Shown here: positions 55,010 through 64,000 of the stretch, in pieces
Position numbering within the stretch: the stretch's first letter is position 1
Layout: each line of letters starts with the position of its first letter
Assembly: GCF_017348835.2 (NCBI RefSeq)
Contig: NZ_CP071375.1
Reading direction: 5' to 3' (one strand)
DNA: 64,000 nucleotides
Origin: Escherichia coli
Lineage (GTDB): Bacteria > Pseudomonadota > Gammaproteobacteria > Enterobacterales > Enterobacteriaceae
Made by a program: the position numbers and the translations under genes
Notes under the pieces: generated by a model
Database searches by the model: none
Told to the model about the DNA's origin: nothing
What the model saw: the letters and a program-made list of their open reading frames with translations, nothing else

Positions 55010-55897
55010 TCAGGCTGCCAGATCATTATTTCCGATGGAAGCATAATAAGCTTTTTCTGCTTCTGCCGGAGGAATATGGCCCAGCCTTTCCAGCAATCGT
55101 CGATTGTTATACCAGTCCACCCACGTGAGTGTGGCCAGTTCCACTTCTGTCCGGTTTTTCCAGCTCTTACGGTGTATTACCTCCGCTTTGTAAAGACCAT
55201 TGATGCTCTCAGCCATCGCGTTGTCATACGAGTCGCCAGTACTCCCTGTTGATGCCAGTAATCCGGCTTCCTTAAGCCGCTGCGTGTAGGCCAGCGATAC
55301 ATACTGAGAACCTTTATCACTGTGATGGATTGTGCCGGACGGCCGACGGGCCCACAACGCCTGCTCCAGTGCATCCAGCACGAATGTTGTTTCCATGGAT
55401 GATGAGACCTGCCATCCCACGATGTATCCGGCGAACACATCAATGATGAACGCCACATAAACGAAGCCCTGCCATGTGCTTACCCAGGTAAAATCAGCCA
55501 CCCACAACTGGTCTGGACGTTCTGCCACGAACTGACGGTTTACGCGGTCGCATGCGGCAACGGCTTTCCGGCTGACGGTAGTGCGGACCTTTTTACCCCG
55601 GAGAACACCGGCAAGTCCCATAACTGCCATGAGACGTGCCACAGTGCATCTGGCCACTCTGATACCTTCCCGTAACAACTGACGCCAGACTTTACGCACA
55701 CCGTATACCTGGTGATTTTCATCGTATACGCGCTGTATCTCTTTCTTCAGCCAGTCATCGTGCTGCGCACGGGCACTGCGTTTATCCGGATGATGTCGCT
55801 GTTGCTGACAATGGTAATACGTTGACGGGGCAATATGCAGTTCGCTGCATACCGGTCCGACCCCGTACTGCTCACGCAGCTTATCCAGCAGTGGCAT
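55010..55897 (-). CDS. IS3-family transposase OrfB (DDE integrase domain)
   Basis: 295-aa frame with rve-type catalytic region; start overlaps the orfA stop (TAATG) next to an A-rich slippery stretch. Confidence 0.9.
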   Translation of the reverse strand: MPLLDKLREQYGVGPVCSELHIAPSTYYHCQQQRHHPDKRSARAQHDDWLKKEIQRVYDENHQVYGVRKVWRQLLREGIRVARCTVARLMAVMGLAGVLRGKKVRTTVSRKAVAACDRVNRQFVAERPDQLWVADFTWVSTWQGFVYVAFIIDVFAGYIVGWQVSSSMETTFVLDALEQALWARRPSGTIHHSDKGSQYVSLAYTQRLKEAGLLASTGSTGDSYDNAMAESINGLYKAEVIHRKSWKNRTEVELATLTWVDWYNNRRLLERLGHIPPAEAEKAYYASIGNNDLAA

Positions 55898-56223
55898 TAT
55901 TTTTTCCAGAGGCGGTCGAACTCCGCCTTCGCAAAATAAGCGGAAGCCTGGCGAAGGATATCGTTACTGCGGCGCAGTTCACGATTTTCACGTTCCAGCT
56001 CTTTCAGACGCTGACGTTCAGCGGTGGTGAGTCCACCATCACCACTCCCGGTATCCCGCTCATGCTGGCGAACCCAGACACGCAGAGTCTCCGGCGTACA
56101 GCCAATCTTTGGGGCAATGGAACAAATTGCCGCCCACTGTGAGTCATATTCATCCTGACTTTCCAGAACCATACGAATCGCCCGCTGACGGACTTCGGGG
56201 GAAAAACGAGTATTTTTAGTCAT
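55897..56223 (-). CDS. IS3-family transposase OrfA (HTH)
   Basis: 108 aa [42 protein letters not shown]... recognised as IS629/IS1203-type OrfA. Confidence 0.9.
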
Positions 56224-56277
56224 CCTGTTTACCTCTTTCTCAGGGAGTTTAGTCTCCAGGATTTCCGGGGCGGTTCA

Positions 56278-56438
56278 GTTCGTTTATTCCATCTTTCGAG
56301 TGCTTCTTTTTCACTTCCACCATAACCGGTTCGGGATTCGCATCCGTTACACTTCGCTCGGTAATATCCTGAAATGGCTTTCACCGTTACTGATGGACAA
56401 CCACAAAATGGACATGGTTTAACATTGTCATATCTCAT
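56278..56438 (-). pseudogene. ralR: restriction-alleviation protein RalR (Lar), 3' end interrupted by the IS element
   Basis: Frame MRYDNVKPCPFCGCPSVTVKAISGYYRAKCNGCESRTGYGGSEKEALERWNKR runs into the IS terminal repeat, after which 15 IS-encoded codons follow. Confidence 0.75.
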
Positions 56439-56494
56439 AATTTTTCTCATAAAAAATATTTCAAGTTGGCGGTGCATTACACCGCCAGGCTGAA

Positions 56495-57304
56495 TTATTC
56501 CTCTGAATTATCGATTACACTGTATTCCCCGGTTAATACAGAGGAATCTGCAGGATCGATTGTCAGTGGTTCCTTTTCATCCATTGATACTGCACGCTGG
56601 ATCTCAATTGATACGGGCAGATATTTGAACAGGCGACGAATAGCCGTTTTCTTTGCCATTTCTTCCCAGTGAGTTACCCACGGCCCGTTATTACCAGCTT
56701 TACTCAGGCTGCGCACCAGCTCAATCTGTTTGCGCGTCATAACTTCAAACTGAGTACCTCCGTCTTTCAGTCTTGCGACAGCATAGACGTGGGTAACCGG
56801 GGCATCTTCGTTTTCTCCCGGGCGGTGTATTAACTTTTCATCAAGGCCAAATTCGAAGCTAAACTCGTCACCTTCACGGACAACACGGGCTGACAGGCTG
56901 GCGATTTGACCAGAACGGCGAGCCAGATCAATCATGCCGCGATAGCCAATGATTAGCTGAACGTTCTTTTTACCGCTCTTTTCGTTTTTATTACCAAAAG
57001 GCAGTAAATATGCATGACCGAGGGCGCTACCTGGCTCAAGTCCGAGCTGTGAACACTGTACGATCGCACTGACAAAACTCATAGTGTCACAGTTTCCTAA
57101 CGCCGGAACTTTACGAATTTCTGTGGTGGCGATACGGATCATACGTTCAGCCGTCATATGGCGTGGAAGAGCTGCTGCCAGTTGCTCTTTCATTGATGGC
57201 TGGTTAATAAAACTAATCACGTCGCTATTTTTAACTGCTGCTGGTGCACGGTTTCCCTGAGTTTTTTGCAGATCGGCTTTTGCGATTGGTGGTTGCTTAG
57301 TCAT
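56495..57304 (-). CDS. recT: recombinase RecT (single-strand annealing protein)
   Basis: 269 aa from [18 protein letters not shown], sequence recognised. Confidence 0.95.
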
Positions 57305-58436
57305 TTGCATATTCCTTAGCCCAGCGGGGCAGTGATAATGTCTTAATAGCTGGCCATTCATCGGTATTCAGGCAGTCAGACAGGGTTCGCAGATTGCGGT
57401 GATATTCCTGTTGACCTGCCAGTTTTGCTTCTTCGCCCATCATGAAAATTTCAACCGGATAACGTCCGCATTCAATAGTTGTGCTGGCAACCAGAAAAAC
57501 GAAAGTTGGCTGCACTCCAAACTGTGCTTCATAACCGTCACTGTAGAATGCATCCTGAACGTGATAGCGGTAGTCGTAATAAGCGGTTTTGAATCGTTGA
57601 ATATCCGCCGTAGTTTTCACGTCCATGATCCAGTGAAATTCAGGGATAATTTTGTCCGGACGGCACCGACACAAAATTCCTGTTTCAGGATCTTCCCAGT
57701 AAATTGATGATTCAGCGTGTCCGGCGCTTTCAACAAGCCATTGCCCCAGCGGCAAAGCCATAACGCTTTGATACATGAGTTCAATTTTCCGGCCTTCTTC
57801 CGCAGTGATAACCGTTTTTCCTGTGCTTGCGCATTCCATCAGAAACGCTTTCTCTTCTTCTTTTCCGGCGTTTGTACGGCGGTTAAATTCAGGTGCTACG
57901 ATAAAGCGGTTACTGAATTCTTCCGGTTCAAGTACCCGGCAGTGGAAAGCAGTTCCTAAATCGAGCGTTTTTGTCTTTGTGGTGTCCACGGGGGCATTTT
58001 TACGCCACAAATATAGTGCCGGAGTATCAGCAATGTCATCGAGCTGAGACTTACTGATACCGGGACCCGCGTGGTAATTCTCATTCGAAATTCCGTAATA
58101 AATACCTGGCTCTATGTCTTCTACGATTACGGGATCTGCGACTTCGCCAGTTTCATCACTGCAATCGCGATGCGGATCGCTGCCAGCATTCTCATTGTGC
58201 GGATGTTCAGCGCCTTCCATTTCCTCCGGATCATTTTCCTTAGCTTCAACCTGACTCTCTTCATCGAATGTTTCCTGGTATGTTGCGTCGCCCATCACCG
58301 CACCACAGTCAGGGCAGTTATCCCCGCCAGTCTGGCCGCAGGCATTGCAGGCTATTTCCGGTTCCTGTTGCACTACTGGCTCAGGTTGATTCATATCTGG
58401 GCTGGTTTTTTCCGTTTCTGGCTGGTTCTGGTACAC
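57297..58436 (-). CDS. recE: exonuclease VIII RecE, C-terminal nuclease portion only (5'-truncated)
   Basis: 379-aa frame ending ...[11 protein letters not shown] and overlapping the recT start; K-12 RecE is 866 aa; frame open upstream only to a stop at 58521-58523; first start-like codon is GTG. Confidence 0.8.
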
Positions 58437-58474
58437 ACAATCGCGAGTCTGGATCCCCTTACCTGGCTGACACC

Positions 58475-59227
58475 ATGCATTTGTCAGCAGAGGAGCATGG
58501 TGCGTATTTGTTGCTGATGTTCAATTACTGGCAAACAGGAAAGCCAATACCTAAAAACAGGCTGGCAAAAATTGCCCGTCTGACTAACGAGCGATGGGCT
58601 GATGTTGAACCATCCTTGCAGGAGTTTTTTTGCGATAACGGCGAGGAATGGGTGCATCTTCGGATTGAGGAAGATCTGGCATCAGTCAGGGAAAAATTAA
58701 CCAAAAAATCAGCCGCAGGAAAAGCATCTGTTCAGGCCAGAAGAAGCAGAAAGGAAGCAGATGTTCAAACAAAACAAGAGAGAAATTTAACAGGTGTTCA
58801 AACAGATGTTGAAGTGGTGTTTGAACATGATGTCAACACAAAGGCAACTAATAAAGATACAGATAAAGATCTAAAAACAGATCCCCCCCTAAATCCCCCC
58901 CGGGGGAATCGAGGTGTCAAAAAGTTTGACCCTCTGGATATTGCTTTGCCGAACTGGATTTCTGTCTCGCTTTGGCGTGAGTGGGTTGAATTTCGCCAGG
59001 CATTGCGAAAACCGATTCGAACGGAGCAGGGCGCTAACGGGGCGATACGGGAGCTGGAAAAATTCCGCCAGCAGGGTTTTTCACCTGAGCAGGTGATTCG
59101 ACACAGCATCGCCAATGAATACCAGGGCTTGTTCGCGCCAAAAGGTGTTCGACCTGAGACGTTACTCCGACAGGTTAACACCGTCTCGTTACCGGATAGT
59201 GCGATCCCGCCAGGCTTCAGGGGGTAA
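58475..59227 (+). CDS. ydaU: prophage replication protein, DUF1376 plus DnaT-like C-terminal domain (YdaU-like)
   Basis: 250 aa from [19 protein letters not shown]; upstream in-frame residues (SPYLADT) still look like DUF1376, suggesting the true N-terminus is missing. Confidence 0.6.
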
Positions 59228-59233
59228 CTGACC

Positions 59234-59980
59234 ATGAAAAATATTGCGGCAGGCGGCATTCTTGAACGTATCCGCAGACTGGCCCCGCCACATGTAACCG
59301 CCCCATTCAAAACGGTAGCGGAGTGGCGCGAGTGGCAACTTTCCGAAGGCCAGAAACGTTGTGAGGAGATCAACCGTCAGAATCGTCAGTTGCGGGTGGA
59401 AAAAATTCTGAATCGCTCCGGCATCCAGCCGTTGCACCGCAAATGCTCGTTTTCGAATTACCAGGTGCAGAACGAAGGGCAGCGATACGCGTTGAGTCAG
59501 GCGAAATCCATCGCTGATGAACTGATGACCGGGTGTACAAATTTTGCGTTCAGCGGAAAACCTGGTACCGGAAAAAACCATCTGGCGGCGGCTATCGGGA
59601 ATCGCCTGCTGAAAGATGGCCAGACAGTGATTGTGGTTACCGTGGCTGATGTCATGAGTGCCCTACACGCCAGCTATGACGACGGGCAATCAGGCGAAAA
59701 ATTTTTGCGGGAACTGTGCCAAGTGGATCTGCTGGTTCTTGATGAAATTGGCATTCAGCGCGAGACAAAAAACGAGCAGGTGGTGCTGCACCAGATTGTT
59801 GATCGCCGGACAGCGTCGATGCGCAGCGTGGGGATGCTGACAAACCTGAATTATGAGGCCATGAAAACATTGCTCGGCGAGAGGATTATGGATCGCATGA
59901 CCATGAACGGCGGGCGATGGGTGAATTTTAACTGGGAGAGCTGGCGTCCGAATGTCGTCCAGCCAGGAATTGCGAAGTAA
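59234..59980 (+). CDS. ydaV: DnaC-like replication protein (helicase loader homolog)
   Basis: 248 aa, colinear with DnaC as I recall it ([17 protein letters not shown], Walker [26 protein letters not shown]). Confidence 0.85.
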
Positions 59981-60002
59981 TTTTTACCGGGAGAAAAATT
60001 TA

Positions 60003-60764
60003 ATGGAGACTGTTTTTGACGCACTGAAAGCAATGGGAAAAGCTACATCCATAGAACTTGCTGCGCGACTTGATATCAGCCGTGAAGAAGTGCTGAACGA
60101 ACTATGGGAACTGAAAAAGGCTGGTTTCGTTGATAAAAGCGCGTACACCTGGCGTGTGGCTGATAACAACGTTCAGCAGGAACAGCCAGCGCCGGCAGAA
60201 CTGCCGGAAGAAACTACCACGGCAACAGTCGCGAAAATTTCAGAGAGCGATTTAACTGCGACGATTGAACAACGTGGTCCACTAACTGCGGATGAACTGG
60301 CTACGTTGTTCGGTACCACATCCCGCAAAGTGGCTTCAACGCTGGCAATGGCAATCAGCAAAGCTCGTCTGATTCGCGTTAATCAGAACGGTAAATTTCG
60401 TTACTGCATGCCGGGCGGTAATTTACCAGCAGAGCCGAAAGCTGCATCGGTAGCGGAAACAGATGGTAAAGCCTTTCCTCAGCTAGCCGGTGTTGCGTTA
60501 CCAGTACAGGAAGCTGCAACACAGGAAGATATTAAAACAGAAACTGTGGCGGACATTGTGCAGTCGTTGCCATCGTTTACTGAAACGCAAGCGGATAACC
60601 TGATTTTACCATCGCTGCATATGGCAAACCGTGAACTGCGTCGGGCGAAAAATCATGTCCAGAAGTGGGAGCGAGTCTGCGCCGCGCTGCGGGAGCTGAA
60701 CAAGCACCGGGATATTGTTCGACAGATTACTGATTCTTCCCGCCGTGTTGTATCGGAAAAGTGA
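60003..60764 (+). CDS. hypothetical prophage protein with two winged-helix-like segments
   Basis: 253 aa from [45 protein letters not shown]; ATG at 60003 with GGGAGA RBS; the longer ORF-track start at 59952 overlaps ydaV. Confidence 0.6.
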
Positions 60765-60779
60765 TTGCCGGAGGCGCTT

Positions 60780-61211
60780 ATGGCAAAAGTATTTACACAA
60801 GAAGAGCGGGAAAAAATTAAAGGGCAGGTTGTTGAACTAGTACGCCGGAGTGGGCGCGAGACGTTACGGCAACTGGAAGCCAAGACAGGTGCGACAAGAT
60901 ATCTGATGAGCGTTCTCGCCAGAGAGCTGGTTGCCAGTGGCGATGTATACAACTCTGGTTACGGGTTATTCCCGTCTGAACAGGCTCGTAAGGACTGGCA
61001 AAATGCCCGCAAAAAACTATCTAGGGCAAAGGTGAAGAAACCATCTGTGGTTGATCCGGACCTTATCTGGTCATTACCAGACGGAGAAATACGCCGCTAC
61101 GACAGGCGTCTGAACATAATCTGTCGCGAGTGCCGGAAGAGCGAAGTTATGCAGCGTGTGCTGGCGTTTTATCAGAATGGTTTTCGAGAGAGGCTTGGAG
61201 ATCAGGGATGA
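60780..61211 (+). CDS. hypothetical prophage protein
   Basis: 143 aa from MAKVFTQEEREKIKGQVVELVRR; GGAGG RBS 5-6 nt upstream of the ATG at 60780. Confidence 0.55.
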   Translation: MAKVFTQEEREKIKGQVVELVRRSGRETLRQLEAKTGATRYLMSVLARELVASGDVYNSGYGLFPSEQARKDWQNARKKLSRAKVKKPSVVDPDLIWSLPDGEIRRYDRRLNIICRECRKSEVMQRVLAFYQNGFRERLGDQG

Positions 61212-61404
61212 ATAGAACGATGAAGGATGGAAGCTACATATTCTCGGTACTAAGATTTATTTTTCTGACACAAAATGACCATTTGGCGTTACATAATCCC
61301 AAAAAAACGTATCAAAAATCTCAAAATGCGTTACGATTAGAGAGTATTTTGATTCTGCGTGCTCATTTTTTGATTGCTGTGGCTTTTTGTTGTGGGAGTG
61401 TTGA

Positions 61405-62559
61405 ATGGATTATTTATCAGAAGTGTTAAAAATCATTGAAGGTGCAACAAAGGCAAATGCTTCGATGGCTAGTAATTATGCTGGGTTGCTGGCAGATAAG
61501 CTCGAACAAAAAGGGGAGGTCAAGCAAGCCAGAATGATAAGAGAAAGGTTGCTTAGAGCTCCCCAGGCGTTGGCAGGAGCTCAAAGGGCTGGAGGTGGGA
61601 TATCTCTGGGCTCATTACCGGTAGATATTGATAGTCGACTCAACACTGTTGATGTCAGTTATCCTAAATTAGACAGTTCAGAGATTTTTCTGCCTGCAGC
61701 AATCAGTACCCGTGTTGAAGAGTTTATCACTAATGTTCAACGTTATGATGAGTTTGTTAAAGCTGATGCAGCATTGCCGAGTCGTATGCTCGTGTATGGA
61801 AAGCCAGGAACAGGTAAGACTATGTTATCTAAGTACATCGCTACCCGCTTAGATTTTCCACTTCTTACAGTGCGTTGCGATACTTTGATTAGTAGTTTAT
61901 TGGGACAAACCAGCAAAAATCTTAGACAGGTTTTCGATTATGTAATGCAGAGGCCATCAGTGCTTTTTTTAGACGAATTTGATGCTTTAGCTGGAGCAAG
62001 AGGTAATGAGAGAGATATAGGTGAGCTTCAGCGAGTTGTCATTTCACTATTGCAGAATATGGATGCGGCATCAGAGGATACGGTAATTATTGCCTCAACT
62101 AACCATGAGCAACTTCTGGATCCTGCAATCTGGAGGCGATTTAGCTTCAGAATTCCAATGCCTCTGCCTGACATACATCAGAGAGAGTTAATTTGGAAAA
62201 ATCGTTTAAAGAATATGATATGTAGCGATCTAGATTTAAGTGATTTATCAAGAAAATCGGAAGGATTATCCGGAGCAATAATTGAACAGGTGAGCTTGGA
62301 TGCACGTAGGGATGCAGTTATTGAAGGTGCAAGTGTGATAAATCACCACAAATTGTATAGGCGTTTGTATCTTGCTCAATCGCTTATGGAAGGTGTAAAT
62401 TTAAGCACTTACGAAGATGAAATTCGTTGGTTACGTTCTAAAGATAAAAAATTATTTTCTATCAGAGTTCTTGCTAATTTGTACAAACTTACATCAAGAG
62501 TAATTTCAAACATTCTGAAGGAGTCAGGAGCATATGAGCAGAAGGGGTACACAGTTTAG
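61405..62559 (+). CDS. classic-clade AAA ATPase with ~125-aa N-terminal extension; first gene of the ATPase-protease cassette
   Basis: 384 aa; Walker A GKPGTGKT (61798-61821), Walker B VLFLDEFD (D190/E191 at 61972-61977), sensor-1 IIASTN, arginine-finger region DPAIWRRF; GGGAG RBS; AT-rich. Confidence 0.85.
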   Translation: MDYLSEVLKIIEGATKANASMASNYAGLLADKLEQKGEVKQARMIRERLLRAPQALAGAQRAGGGISLGSLPVDIDSRLNTVDVSYPKLDSSEIFLPAAISTRVEEFITNVQRYDEFVKADAALPSRMLVYGKPGTGKTMLSKYIATRLDFPLLTVRCDTLISSLLGQTSKNLRQVFDYVMQRPSVLFLDEFDALAGARGNERDIGELQRVVISLLQNMDAASEDTVIIASTNHEQLLDPAIWRRFSFRIPMPLPDIHQRELIWKNRLKNMICSDLDLSDLSRKSEGLSGAIIEQVSLDARRDAVIEGASVINHHKLYRRLYLAQSLMEGVNLSTYEDEIRWLRSKDKKLFSIRVLANLYKLTSRVISNILKESGAYEQKGYTV

Positions 62560-64000
62560 TAACGCAAAAGTTACAAACCCAACGTTAAGAATCCCTTTTT
62601 CCAGTAGTGACTTGGGTGCAATAGTAAACGCTGGCGGTGGGGCAAAGGTATTGGTTGATGTAACAGCCGAATATAGACAAGGGCTAGTAAGAAATTTAAC
62701 AACCAGTAAACATTATTTAGAATCCAAACTTTCAGAGTACCCTGGAAGCTTGGGTACTTTGGTTTTCAAATTAAGAGACCAGGGAATAGCCAAAACGCAT
62801 AGGCCGAACAAAATTGCTCAAGAGGCTGGATTGCAAAATGCCGGTCATGCCAAAATAGATGAAATGTTGGTTGCTGCTCATGCCGGCTGTTTTGACGTAT
62901 TAGAGTCAGTCATTTTAAATCGGAATATTAAAGCGATTTTGGCTAATCTAAGCGCGATTGAGCGCATTGAACCTTGGGATGAGAATAGGAAGGTTCCGGG
63001 AGGCACTGATGGTTTGTTTGAATCATCAAACATCCTTGTACGACTATTTGAGTACACAGGTGAAGATGCAACTTACAACAACTATGAAAACGTTATTTCT
63101 ATATTAGAACAATACGGAGTTAAATATGATGAAATTAGACAAAAATGTGGTCTTCCCTTATTAAGGATAATGGATTTATCCCCAAGTGATAGATATATAT
63201 TAGACATTCTCATTGATTACCCGGGTATAAGAACGTTAATTCCAGAACCAAAATATTCAGCATTCCCGGTTAGTGTAAGTGATTCTGTTGGCATTGAAAC
63301 AAATAGCTTTCCCGTACCATCAGAAGAATTACCCATTGTTGCTGTATTTGACACTGGGGTAAGCCCCATCGCGGCAACAATTACTCCTTGGGTAGTGAGT
63401 AGGGAAACATACGTAATTCCTCCTGATACGAGTTATGAACATGGGACTATGGTGTCTTCATTGATATCAGGCGCTCATTTTTTAAATGACAATCATCCAT
63501 GGATTCCTGATACAAAATCTAAAATCCATGATGTTTGTGCTTTAGATGAAAATGGATCTTATATATCAGATTTAATTCTGAGGCTAGCAGATGCTGTAAA
63601 TAAAAGACCAGATATAAAAGTCTGGAATTTGTCTTTGGGAGGCGGACCATGTAATGAGCAGATGTTTAGTGATTTTGCGATGGAGTTAGATCGGCTCAGC
63701 GATAAATTTGGTATTTTGTTTGTAGTTGCTGCAGGTAATTATGTAGATGAACCTATACGTACATGGCCAAATCCTGATCCGCTTGGAGGTGCTGATTTAA
63801 TTTCCTCTCCTGGAGAGTCAGTCCGAGCACTAACAGTTGGTTCAGTTTCTCATATGGAAGCTAATGATGCTTTAAGTGAAATTGGAACACCGACACCATA
63901 TACTCGTCGTGGCCCTGGTCCTGTATTTACTCCAAAGCCAGATATAATCCATGCTGGCGGTGGGGTTCATAGACCTTGGAATGTAGGAGCAAGCAGTTTA
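62534..64000 (+). CDS. subtilisin-like (S8) serine peptidase, partial (runs off window end); second gene of the cassette
   Basis: ATG at 62534 overlaps the ATPase 3' end by 26 nt; catalytic Asp in VAVFDTG (63350-63352), His in YEHGTMVSS (63440-63442), S8 motifs VWNLSLGG and VVAAGN (Asn at 63737-63739); catalytic Ser expected beyond 64000; ~270 aa precede the catalytic core. Confidence 0.8.
   Translation, partial: MSRRGTQFSNAKVTNPTLRIPFSSSDLGAIVNAGGGAKVLVDVTAEYRQGLVRNLTTSKHYLESKLSEYPGSLGTLVFKLRDQGIAKTHRPNKIAQEAGLQNAGHAKIDEMLVAAHAGCFDVLESVILNRNIKAILANLSAIERIEPWDENRKVPGGTDGLFESSNILVRLFEYTGEDATYNNYENVISILEQYGVKYDEIRQKCGLPLLRIMDLSPSDRYILDILIDYPGIRTLIPEPKYSAFPVSVSDSVGIETNSFPVPSEELPIVAVFDTGVSPIAATITPWVVSRETYVIPPDTSYEHGTMVSSLISGAHFLNDNHPWIPDTKSKIHDVCALDENGSYISDLILRLADAVNKRPDIKVWNLSLGGGPCNEQMFSDFAMELDRLSDKFGILFVVAAGNYVDEPIRTWPNPDPLGGADLISSPGESVRALTVGSVSHMEANDALSEIGTPTPYTRRGPGPVFTPKPDIIHAGGGVHRPWNVGASSL

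Follow-up and report, generated by a model that had tools for sequence, protein, structure and literature searches.

The IetAS system, which serves defence and plasmid stability, is widespread and has been validated, and its protease component raises a simple question: a cytoplasmic subtilase toxin must be silenced somehow, and the N-terminal third of IetS is the obvious candidate for this task. We address this question with the copy of ietS found at the end of a 64,000-nucleotide stretch of Escherichia coli DNA (contig NZ_CP071375.1; hereafter, the window).

The ietAS locus

The window carries, on the plus strand, ietA (also named iteA; 61405–62559), encoding the AAA+ ATPase and antitoxin partner, and directly downstream ietS (iteS; 62534–64000), encoding the S8 toxin protease. 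The pair is located in a Rac-type prophage. In addition to its RefSeq annotation, the ietA product scores 526.6 bits against the NCBIfam equivalog IteA (NF042959, cut-off 510) and 474 bits against the PADLOC IetA model. Translation of ietS starts at an ATG at 62534, with an AGGAG 5 nt upstream and a 26-nt overlap with the end of ietA, stop codon included. The frame is open for 489 codons up to the window end and runs past it; an identical E. coli record provides the complete gene of 754 codons. The gene is identical (100%) to annotated iteS and 99–100% identical across 77 E. coli genomes. Full-length IetS scores 1042.8 bits against the IteS equivalog (NF042956, cut-off 900), with residues 15–752 aligning end to end to profile positions 1–747 of 747, and 996.7 bits against the PADLOC IetS model (PDLC02197). 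These assignments, together with ietA directly upstream, bear out the first-pass annotation, which had referred to ietS-like proteins and to an ATPase. An IetA homologue is also found immediately 5′ of IetS in 67 out of 67 IMG/VR loci having upstream DNA. The protein is IetS/IteS, an already-known S8 toxin protease with no gene-level difference from IetS, and the gene is ordinary annotated prophage cargo that reveals no new system.

The S8 catalytic domain begins at 63338 and extends to the window end at 64000 on the plus strand (Pfam Peptidase_S8 at residues 268–544, E 9e-26). The catalytic residues D273 (codon 63350–63352), H303, N402 and S505 are intact and invariant in the homologue alignments; the first three are encoded within the window, and S505, which lies past its end, was taken from the identical record.

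IetS is said to have been first described on pTiC58, in a 2009 paper. The phage protection and the IetA-neutralised toxicity come from the literature on homologues of the pair found in the window: Gao et al. 2020, cited in PMC13069673, reported a defence role, defence depends on the protease activity of IetS, and no clone of a mutated ietA can be obtained, which indicates that active IetA neutralises IetS (PMC13069673). Defence is abortive and triggered by the expression of a single phage gene (bioRxiv 10.1101/2022.08.27.505566); as of April 2026, how IetAS works had yet to be explained (PMC13069673).

A family-specific N-terminal module and its predicted architecture

The N-terminal module (residues 1–268, 62534–63337, plus strand) lies ahead of the VAVFDTG motif, which begins at residue 269. 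The first-pass annotation had counted about 270 residues before this motif, in good agreement with the 268 found here; its range, 62534–63340, corresponds to ietS codons 1–269. Pfam recognises only Peptidase_S8 in IetS, leaving residues 1–267 without a match even at E ≤ 10, and the N-terminal region of 80 homologues is likewise devoid of any Pfam domain. Since residues 1 to about 260 are covered by the NCBIfam, PADLOC and PHROG family profiles and the region is conserved in 188 full-length homologues, the module is real coding sequence and not a chance reading frame. The opposite strand of the region contains no ORF of at least 60 aa.

Homologues were gathered by a full-length search and an exhaustive search of representatives, a word-index search with the module alone having returned only 3 fragments. 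Against 1.84 billion representatives, the module profile yields 298 matches, every one at a protein N-terminus, in proteins of 722–800 aa when complete. Its matches are confined to the N-terminal ends of IetS models in PADLOC and to one PHROG of unknown function in PHROGs, while profile searches of the PDB with two alignments return noise only. Taken together, the searches of Pfam, NCBIfam, PADLOC, PHROGs and PDB detect no known domain in residues 1–268 besides IetS itself. A structure search of AFDB50 gives 260 matches at E ≤ 1e-3, the best 50 of which are S8 peptidases of about 750–800 aa, shorter fragments or short unnamed proteins (TMq 0.53–0.77, identity 14–45%). Residues 1–268 are a family-specific N-terminal module of IetS. 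We found neither a structure nor a domain-level study of IetS in the literature searched, residues 1–268 included; the domain-level description of this region is what the present analysis adds to the known protein.

Structural features were derived from AlphaFold2 models of full-length IetS and of the module, with secondary structure assigned by DSSP. The N-terminal region is predicted with a pLDDT of 88.8 and the full-length model is compact (pTM 0.82). According to these models, the module runs from a loose, conserved segment bearing a Gly-rich loop through a long helix and a pair of ferredoxin-like domains to a variable linker. In this respect the first-pass annotation needs revision: no domain is recognisable in the sequence of the region, but two are apparent in its structure as predicted with high confidence.

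More specifically, and with all features on the plus strand, the module opens with a basic, variable and disordered tip (residues 1–14, 62534–62575), conserved neither in length nor in sequence, with pLDDT below 50 at residues 1–8 of the full-length model and 1–5 of the module model. The conserved segment that follows (residues 15–44, 62576–62665, pLDDT 59–75) carries the pattern N-P-x-x-x-[IV]-P-F..D-L and the Gly-rich loop G33–G36/K38, as read from column frequencies in the 188 full-length homologues (P16.91, D26.89, G34.91, K38.80). Residues 16–29 form beta bridges only in the full-length model, in which the catalytic and C-terminal domains are present. Next, a long helix (residues 45–68, 62666–62737) is assigned in both models with a pLDDT of 90–98 and contains R48, conserved at.96.

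The predicted ferredoxin-like domain 1 (residues 73–147, 62750–62974) is built from strand 74–80, a loop with a short helix, helix 92–97, strands 101–105 and 110–115, helix 119–141 and strand 142–147. Its b1-a1 connection is the loop A86-K87-T88-H89-R90-P91 (62789–62806), with the family motif A-K-[ST]-H-R-P (frequencies in the 188 full-length homologues: A 1.00, K 1.00, S+T 1.00, H.95, R.98, P.99); A86 and K87 are unchanged in homologues down to 26% identity. In composition, the loop consists of basic residues followed by a proline. Domain 2 (residues 166–237, 63029–63244), also ferredoxin-like by prediction and placed at the position of a propeptide, contains strand 166–171, helix 177–193, strands 198–201 and 209–213, helix 217–228 and strand 232–237. 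In the same 188 homologues F172 of domain 2 is 100% conserved, and G104, R48, R90 and P91 are each conserved in at least 96%. In invariance, the A-K-S/T-H-R-P loop and F172 equal the catalytic triad. Finally, a tail and a variable Pro-rich linker (residues 238–268, 63245–63337) lead into the strand VAVFDTG; P239 (.88), an aromatic residue at position 241 (.73) and P267 (.95) are retained, and the linker is the least conserved stretch of IetS (.31), with pLDDT below 50 at residues 246–251. A beta strand or bridges at residues 240–242 appear in the full-length model and are absent from the module model.

Whether domains 1 and 2 arose by internal duplication was also considered: an hhalign comparison of the two units gives a non-significant E of 0.09, and no homology is therefore claimed between them. 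The ferredoxin-like fold also raises the option of an ACT-like allosteric role, in which a small-molecule ligand (a nucleotide, an amino acid or an alarmone), bound at the b1-a1 loop of one or both units, would gate the protease. The similarity of the units to ACT/RAM-type regulatory domains is limited to the fold, the sequence motif differs and Pfam ACT has no match in 80 IetS members; we regard this role as improbable.

Divergence within the family and the question of specificity

The N-terminal module evolves faster than any other part of IetS: its identity to the query is 45%, against 63% for the S8 domain and 66% for the C-terminal region. Within the module, variability is highest in domain 2 and the linker. 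The first-pass annotation had singled out this region as the likely seat of sensing or specificity. Such a phage-sensor domain would bind the phage trigger protein directly and thereby activate the protease, and both the rapid divergence and the triggering of IetAS by a single phage gene (bioRxiv 10.1101/2022.08.27.505566) agree with it. The same can be said of the E. coli alleles: compared with 10 others, the window allele has 4 out of 4 amino-acid differences within the module, albeit in a very small sample (chance about 0.016, uncorrected for multiple looks). Non-synonymous to synonymous sites among near-identical E. coli alleles, too few to carry any conclusion, are 7:5 in the module and 7:10 elsewhere.

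Rapid divergence is, however, also a property of propeptides, which evolve faster than their catalytic domains. Furthermore, divergence of the module tracks that of the catalytic domain (r 0.946, residual sd 0.04, 17,578 pairwise comparisons) and no outlier pair combines a similar core with a swapped module, so that the idea of a shuffled specificity cassette is rejected. Homologues of 26% identity, which must face different phages, still share the most conserved elements unchanged, and the literature is silent both on the sensing component and on whether sensing is direct or indirect (bioRxiv 10.1101/2022.08.27.505566). Our analysis found no support for a sensor role of the module, and we consider it unlikely.

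Family-wide invariance of the best-conserved elements, as judged from the alignments, speaks for a partner that stays constant and not for phage triggers that vary. In a mirror-tree analysis of 53 unique IMG/VR operons, every region of IetS correlates with IetA at r 0.94–0.965, and partial correlations with IetA in the same 53 operons do not single out the module. A constant partner would also suit a domain that recruits substrates or drives oligomerisation, that is, an exosite choosing the toxin targets or a platform that assembles IetS with the IetA hexamer, without any inhibitory role. The invariant surface motif, the co-descent with IetA over the full length of the protein and the compact full-length model (pTM 0.82) all fit such a function. 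Yet it leaves unexplained how a cytoplasmic protease of a broad family stays harmless and why the second unit sits exactly at the prodomain position, and no target is known; we accordingly give this explanation little weight.

Likeness to subtilase propeptides and a possible latch

A beta-alpha-beta-beta-alpha-beta fold of about 70–80 residues, directly N-terminal to the S8 domain, is predicted in IetS as domain 2, and the top structural matches of the modelled N-terminal region include subtilase prodomains and I9 inhibitors. The distance from the first strand of domain 2 to D273 is 107 residues, and the equivalent spacing in pro-subtilisin BPN′ is about 100 residues. In Foldseek, the full-length model aligns over 446–594 columns with pro-enzymes as compared to 308–328 columns with mature subtilisins, and TMt is 0.67 for unautoprocessed pro-subtilisin E (355 aa) versus 0.63–0.74 for mature enzymes of about 270 aa; the alignment lengths and the TMt of pro-subtilisin E imply that the extra 80 residues superpose in the same frame. 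From these alignment lengths and the TM arithmetic, domain 2 is predicted to stand in place of a classical I9-type propeptide. It shares its fold, its position and its spacing before the catalytic Asp with the N-propeptides and I9 inhibitors of subtilases (pro-subtilisin, Tk-SP ProN, the PCSK9 prodomain, POIA1). Unlike these systems, IetS lacks a signal peptide and a detectable sequence relation, and carries, ahead of the propeptide-like unit, a conserved N-terminal segment, a long helix and a further ferredoxin-like domain.

At the sequence level, no relation of the module to I9 or other propeptides is detected by Pfam, hhalign or PDB profile search: Inhibitor_I9 (PF05922) has no match at E ≤ 10 in IetS nor in any of 80 homologues (0/80), and hhalign of the units against prodomain sequences of subtilisin BPN′ and E gives E values of 0.11 and 0.31, out of register. 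Likewise, Kyte-Doolittle profiles reveal no hydrophobic signal or transmembrane segment in IetS, with maxima of 1.41 (15-residue mean, first 60 aa) and 1.48 (19-residue mean, whole protein). The first-pass annotation had noted the absence of both a signal peptide and a propeptide-like sequence, and both observations stand, as neither a confident I9 match nor a signal peptide was found.

These results also bear on an ordinary secreted-subtilase leader, namely a signal peptide and a standard I9 propeptide removed after export, an arrangement with which only the general S8 membership and the prodomain-like fold of domain 2 agree. Since there is no export signal at all, this reading is refuted; in addition, no I9 HMM matches, the region spans 268 residues in two domains instead of about 77, and IetS acts as a toxin in the cytoplasm, where an ATPase neutralises it (PMC13069673). 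We retain practically no probability for it.

Two known enzymes offer instructive comparisons. The best full-length structural match of the IetS model is Tk-SP of Thermococcus kodakarensis (PDB 3afg, ProN-Tk-SP; E 2e-22, 585 columns, TMt 0.60), which also ranks first among the PDB sequence matches of the catalytic domain. Like IetS, Tk-SP consists of a pro-like unit, the S8 domain and a beta-rich C-domain (in Tk-SP, a C-terminal beta-jelly roll), but it is secreted, only 16–17% identical, and without the second N-terminal domain, the A-K-S-H-R-P motif and an ATPase partner. The intracellular subtilisins (ISP) of Bacillus are cytoplasmic and blocked by a short N-terminal extension of about 18 residues. 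By analogy, ISP and IetS may both be cytoplasmic subtilases in need of an internal N-terminal block, and R-I-P-F at residues 19–22 of IetS resembles the LIPY/F motif of ISP, a likeness that we take to be putative. Among PDB sequences, an ISP chain (7y6m_C) matches weakly. ISP differ from IetS in having this short extension instead of a 268-residue two-domain module, and in lacking an ATPase partner.

Because IetS has no signal peptide, a mechanism of latency is needed in the cytoplasm. We propose that the module serves as an intrinsic pro-region, or latch, holding cytoplasmic IetS latent under the control of the IetA ATPase, a proposal which in our judgement stands an even chance of being right. 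Starting from what is established here, namely which protein this is, how the module is distributed and conserved and which fold it is predicted to adopt, we infer docking, inhibition, a link to IetA and release as follows. The module would assist folding of the catalytic domain and then remain attached as a latch under which the cytoplasmic protease stays latent. Domain 2 would dock onto the catalytic domain, with either the tail (238–244), the N-terminal segment (15–29) or the A-K-S/T-H-R-P loop of domain 1 placed inside the substrate cleft or close to it. In the predicted models, the longer alignments to pro-enzymes and the strand at 240–242 seen only at full length are consistent with docking of domain 2 and with the tail in the cleft. 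Domain 1 and its invariant loop may form the constant interface, most plausibly where IetA, as antitoxin, keeps the latch closed. A phage-induced failure of this control would free the protease and result in cell death. A more specific version, which we put forward as speculative and rather unlikely to hold in full, is a zymogen latch of two domains that is unique to this family: the loop would serve as an uncleavable pseudo-substrate or as the IetA docking site, IetA would hold the latch shut at the expense of ATP, and the latch would open once a phage product disables or distracts IetA.

The question now posed for the N-terminal module is whether it is a prodomain-like latch or a sensor. Domain boundaries are now set for truncations (1–14, 15–70, 73–147, 166–237 and 238–268) and invariant residues are named as mutation targets (K87, R90, F172, R48 and G104). 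If true, a latch gated by IetA would make IetAS a case in which a subtilase zymogen gated by an ATPase serves as an immune trigger, and would explain the mechanism of this system.

The ietS gene and its prophage setting

The ietS reading frame starts with an ATG at window position 62534, with AGGAG 5 nt 5' of it, and stays open for 489 codons up to the window end. Chromosomal DNA in 77 of 5,426 complete Escherichia coli genomes matches 61200-64000 at 99-100% identity, and those 77 genomes annotate iteA (anti-phage ATPase; ietA, 61405..62559, + strand) and iteS (S8 family anti-phage peptidase; ietS). In strain PE164 the complete ietS encodes 754 residues, with the VAVFDTG motif from residue 269 and catalytic residues D273, H303, N402 (oxyanion) and S505. 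Against the NCBIfam IteS equivalog (cut-off 900 bits), full-length IetS reaches 1042.8 bits, with residues 15-752 spanning the entire profile, and the upstream protein reaches 526.6 bits against the IteA equivalog (cut-off 510 bits); the PADLOC scores are 997 bits for IetS and 474 bits for IetA. As a defence gene, ietS was already known and annotated. The system was first found on pTiC58, with IetS as toxin and IetA as antitoxin; defence requires protease activity, cloning of mutated ietA was not possible, and the anti-phage mechanism was stated in April 2026 to 'remain unknown' (PMC13069673). Abortive infection is the mode of action of a Bacillus homologue, which is toxic upon expression of one phage gene (bioRxiv 10.1101/2022.08.27.505566); a homologue from mycoplasma, 757 aa in length, shows the behaviour of a toxin-antitoxin pair (PMC8562856). 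We found no account of which domains make up the N-terminal region in the literature searched, and no IetS structure by sequence search of the PDB.

The operon is carried by a defective prophage of Rac type that lies at ttcA and has the gene order intR, xisR, rcbA, IS3 insertion, ralR, recT, recE fragment, replication genes, ietAS, and nin/Q-like and lysis genes. Within positions 55010-61211 of the window, annotated with the help of the outside sequence records L001 and L082, the IS3 element carries a programmed frameshift and lies between rcbA and ralR (about 55010-56223). Only a C-terminal fragment of recE is present (57297-58436); it adjoins a ydaU-like replication gene, and the immunity/kil region has therefore apparently been deleted. 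GC content is about 0.50 in the replication genes and 0.37-0.43 over ietAS (window 61000-64000), a drop that would be expected of acquired DNA, and the operon looks like foreign cargo placed between the replication and nin/Q-like modules. The ietA stop and ietS start overlap by 26 nt (62534-62559), and in all 67 IMG/VR loci having upstream DNA the IetA gene ends -14 to +37 nt from where the IetS profile match begins, which suggests that antitoxin and toxin are tightly coupled in translation.

An N-terminal module confined to IetS

The first-pass annotation rightly placed about 270 residues ahead of VAVFDTG, and its positions for them hold as well. Pfam identifies only Peptidase_S8 in IetS (268-544), and for this N-module (residues 1-268; 62534-63337, + strand) it returns no match over residues 1-267 in the query or in 80 of 80 homologues. 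The earlier reading that signal peptide and subtilisin propeptide-like sequences are missing also holds: neither a signal peptide nor a membrane segment was found in IetS, and Inhibitor_I9 is absent by Pfam from the query and the 80 homologues. A standard secreted-subtilase leader was rejected, since Pfam and sequence inspection found neither of these marks.

With the N-module alone as query, the only matches were to N-terminal ends, those of five IetS models in PADLOC and of one PHROG of unknown function; profile searches of the PDB with two alignments of the N-module gave noise only. A profile search of 1.84 billion representative proteins matched 298, always starting at the protein N-terminus, the complete ones being 722-800 aa long. 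Because every complete IetS among 80 IMG/VR loci also has the N-module, with IetA upstream in 67 of 67, we conclude that it is a constant and exclusive part of IetS. Separately, IetS-like ORFs on two IMG/VR contigs, L048 (2137-3903) and L070 (3914-5887), start at family-profile positions 178 and 154, lack the first ferredoxin-like unit described below and have no detected IetA upstream. These two ORFs may represent copies that have decayed or been truncated.

Predicted fold and conservation

Structure prediction, proposed earlier as a check on this region, was run with AlphaFold2 on full-length IetS (30 sequences; pLDDT 78.6, pTM 0.82) and on residues 1-268 (40 diverse sequences; pLDDT 88.8 overall and about 88-98 over residues 41-240). 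Both models agree on a disordered tip (1-14), a lower-confidence conserved segment and Gly-rich loop (15-44), a long helix (45-68), a ferredoxin-like beta-alpha-beta-beta-alpha-beta unit (unit 1, 73-147) with A-K-T-H-R-P in its b1-a1 connection, two short helices (150-163), a second such unit (unit 2, 166-237) and a poorly ordered linker (238-267). Beta bridges by residues 16-29 and 240-242 occur in the full-length model only, so the probable pairing partner of these segments is the catalytic or the C-terminal domain. The Gly-rich loop consists of G33-G36 and then K38 (window 62630-62647). Conservation is.91 at G34 and.80 at K38; the loop is modelled at pLDDT <50 and is not a canonical P-loop. 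The C-terminal 209 residues (546-754; L001 8970-9596, past the window end) are beta-rich and the best conserved part of the protein (0.73), with no Pfam domain; together with the Tk-SP match described below, this suggests a beta-jelly-roll-like domain.

In the close family the N-module is the most divergent part of IetS (mean identity to the query 45%, versus 63% for S8 and 66% for the C-terminal region). Conservation scores are 0.68 for unit 1 (70-150), 0.70 for the catalytic domain, 0.47 for unit 2 (166-245) and 0.31 for the linker; unit 1 is thus conserved to the same degree as the catalytic domain. Across 188 full-length homologues, reaching down to about 26% identity, A86, K87, S/T88 and F172 each have a frequency of 1.00, followed by P91 (0.99), R90 (0.98), G104 (0.97), R48 (0.96), H89 (0.95) and S140 (0.95). 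The A-K-T-H-R-P loop (86-91, window 62789-62806) and F172 (63047-63049) are as strict as the catalytic triad, in an N-module that falls to about 20% identity around them. The predicted units and the invariant positions led us to reject a featureless spacer. From its conservation, we infer that the invariant basic loop of unit 1 must have a partner shared by the entire family.

Pairwise N-module identity follows catalytic-domain identity (r 0.946, residual sd 0.04), and no pairs with a similar core and a swapped N-module were found among these comparisons. A direct sensor role, as the first-pass annotation suggested, is possible for the variable parts of the N-module, but neither this divergence in step with the catalytic domain nor the invariance of the key motif lends it specific support. 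The earlier observation stands, its interpretation only in part. All four amino-acid differences between the window allele and all 10 IMG/VR E. coli alleles (T17M, N129H, Y194H and S218N; 62582, 62918, 63113 and 63185) fall in the N-module, in a small sample, and five shared synonymous differences are scattered over the gene.

Structural relatives and a candidate pro-region

Sequence profiles link neither unit 1 to unit 2 (E 0.09) nor either unit to a subtilisin prodomain. Structural comparison returned prodomains (ProN-Tk-SP 6.7, pro-kumamolisin 6.7, Alp1 propeptide 6.5, PCSK9 prodomain 6.2), ribosomal S6/S10-type proteins and ACT-type regulatory domains (AHAS small subunit 7.7, Rel ACT 7.0). 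An ACT-like ligand-binding role for unit 1 is a second live alternative; Pfam finds no ACT match in the query or 80 homologues. With the full-length model, Tk-SP heads the PDB matches in Foldseek (ProN-Tk-SP, E 2e-22, 585 columns), and alignments to pro-enzymes (446-594 columns) exceed those to mature subtilisins (308-328) by about 120-270 columns. The TM-score to unautoprocessed pro-subtilisin E (0.67 over 355 residues) is too high to be explained by the mature part, which gives 0.63-0.74 over about 270 residues. Judging by these Foldseek summary numbers, unit 2 would lie roughly at the prodomain site in the model.

Against AFDB50, the N-module gave 260 Foldseek matches (E<=1e-3). The 50 best come from Proteobacteria, Bacillus, Clostridium, Planctomycetes and other groups; each is an S8 peptidase of about 750-800 aa, a shorter fragment or a short unnamed protein. 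Their TMq of 0.53-0.77 at 14-45% identity indicates that the predicted fold is common to the whole IetS family. Five AFDB50 proteins of 242-292 aa that are not marked as fragments (F9P854, A0A7V6X252, A0A1C6HAX5, A0A4R2RG50 and A0A9E6MWQ4) match the whole N-module (TMq 0.6-0.7) and have no protease domain; two more short matches, of 226 and 247 aa, carry the fragment mark. Such proteins might come from ietS genes that are split or frameshifted, or be N-modules that exist on their own.

The best-supported reading is that the N-module is a retained two-domain pro-region. Unit 2 would be the structural counterpart of the I9 propeptide, a folding helper and inhibitor in classical subtilases, and might likewise dock on and inhibit the protease; unlike in those enzymes, a further ferredoxin-like unit, with an invariant basic loop, lies ahead of it. 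Since IetS is a cytoplasmic toxin that needs an active ATPase to be neutralised, the simplest model would have the pro-region act as a latch held closed by IetA, which would open when infection disturbs IetA. A mirror-tree test for coupling of the N-module to IetA was uninformative. That IetS is an ATPase-gated subtilase zymogen in which the loop is a pseudo-substrate or docks IetA strikes us as rather unlikely. Our domain-level description and the invariant motif add modestly to what is known of this defence gene, and they allow direct tests of how IetS is held latent.
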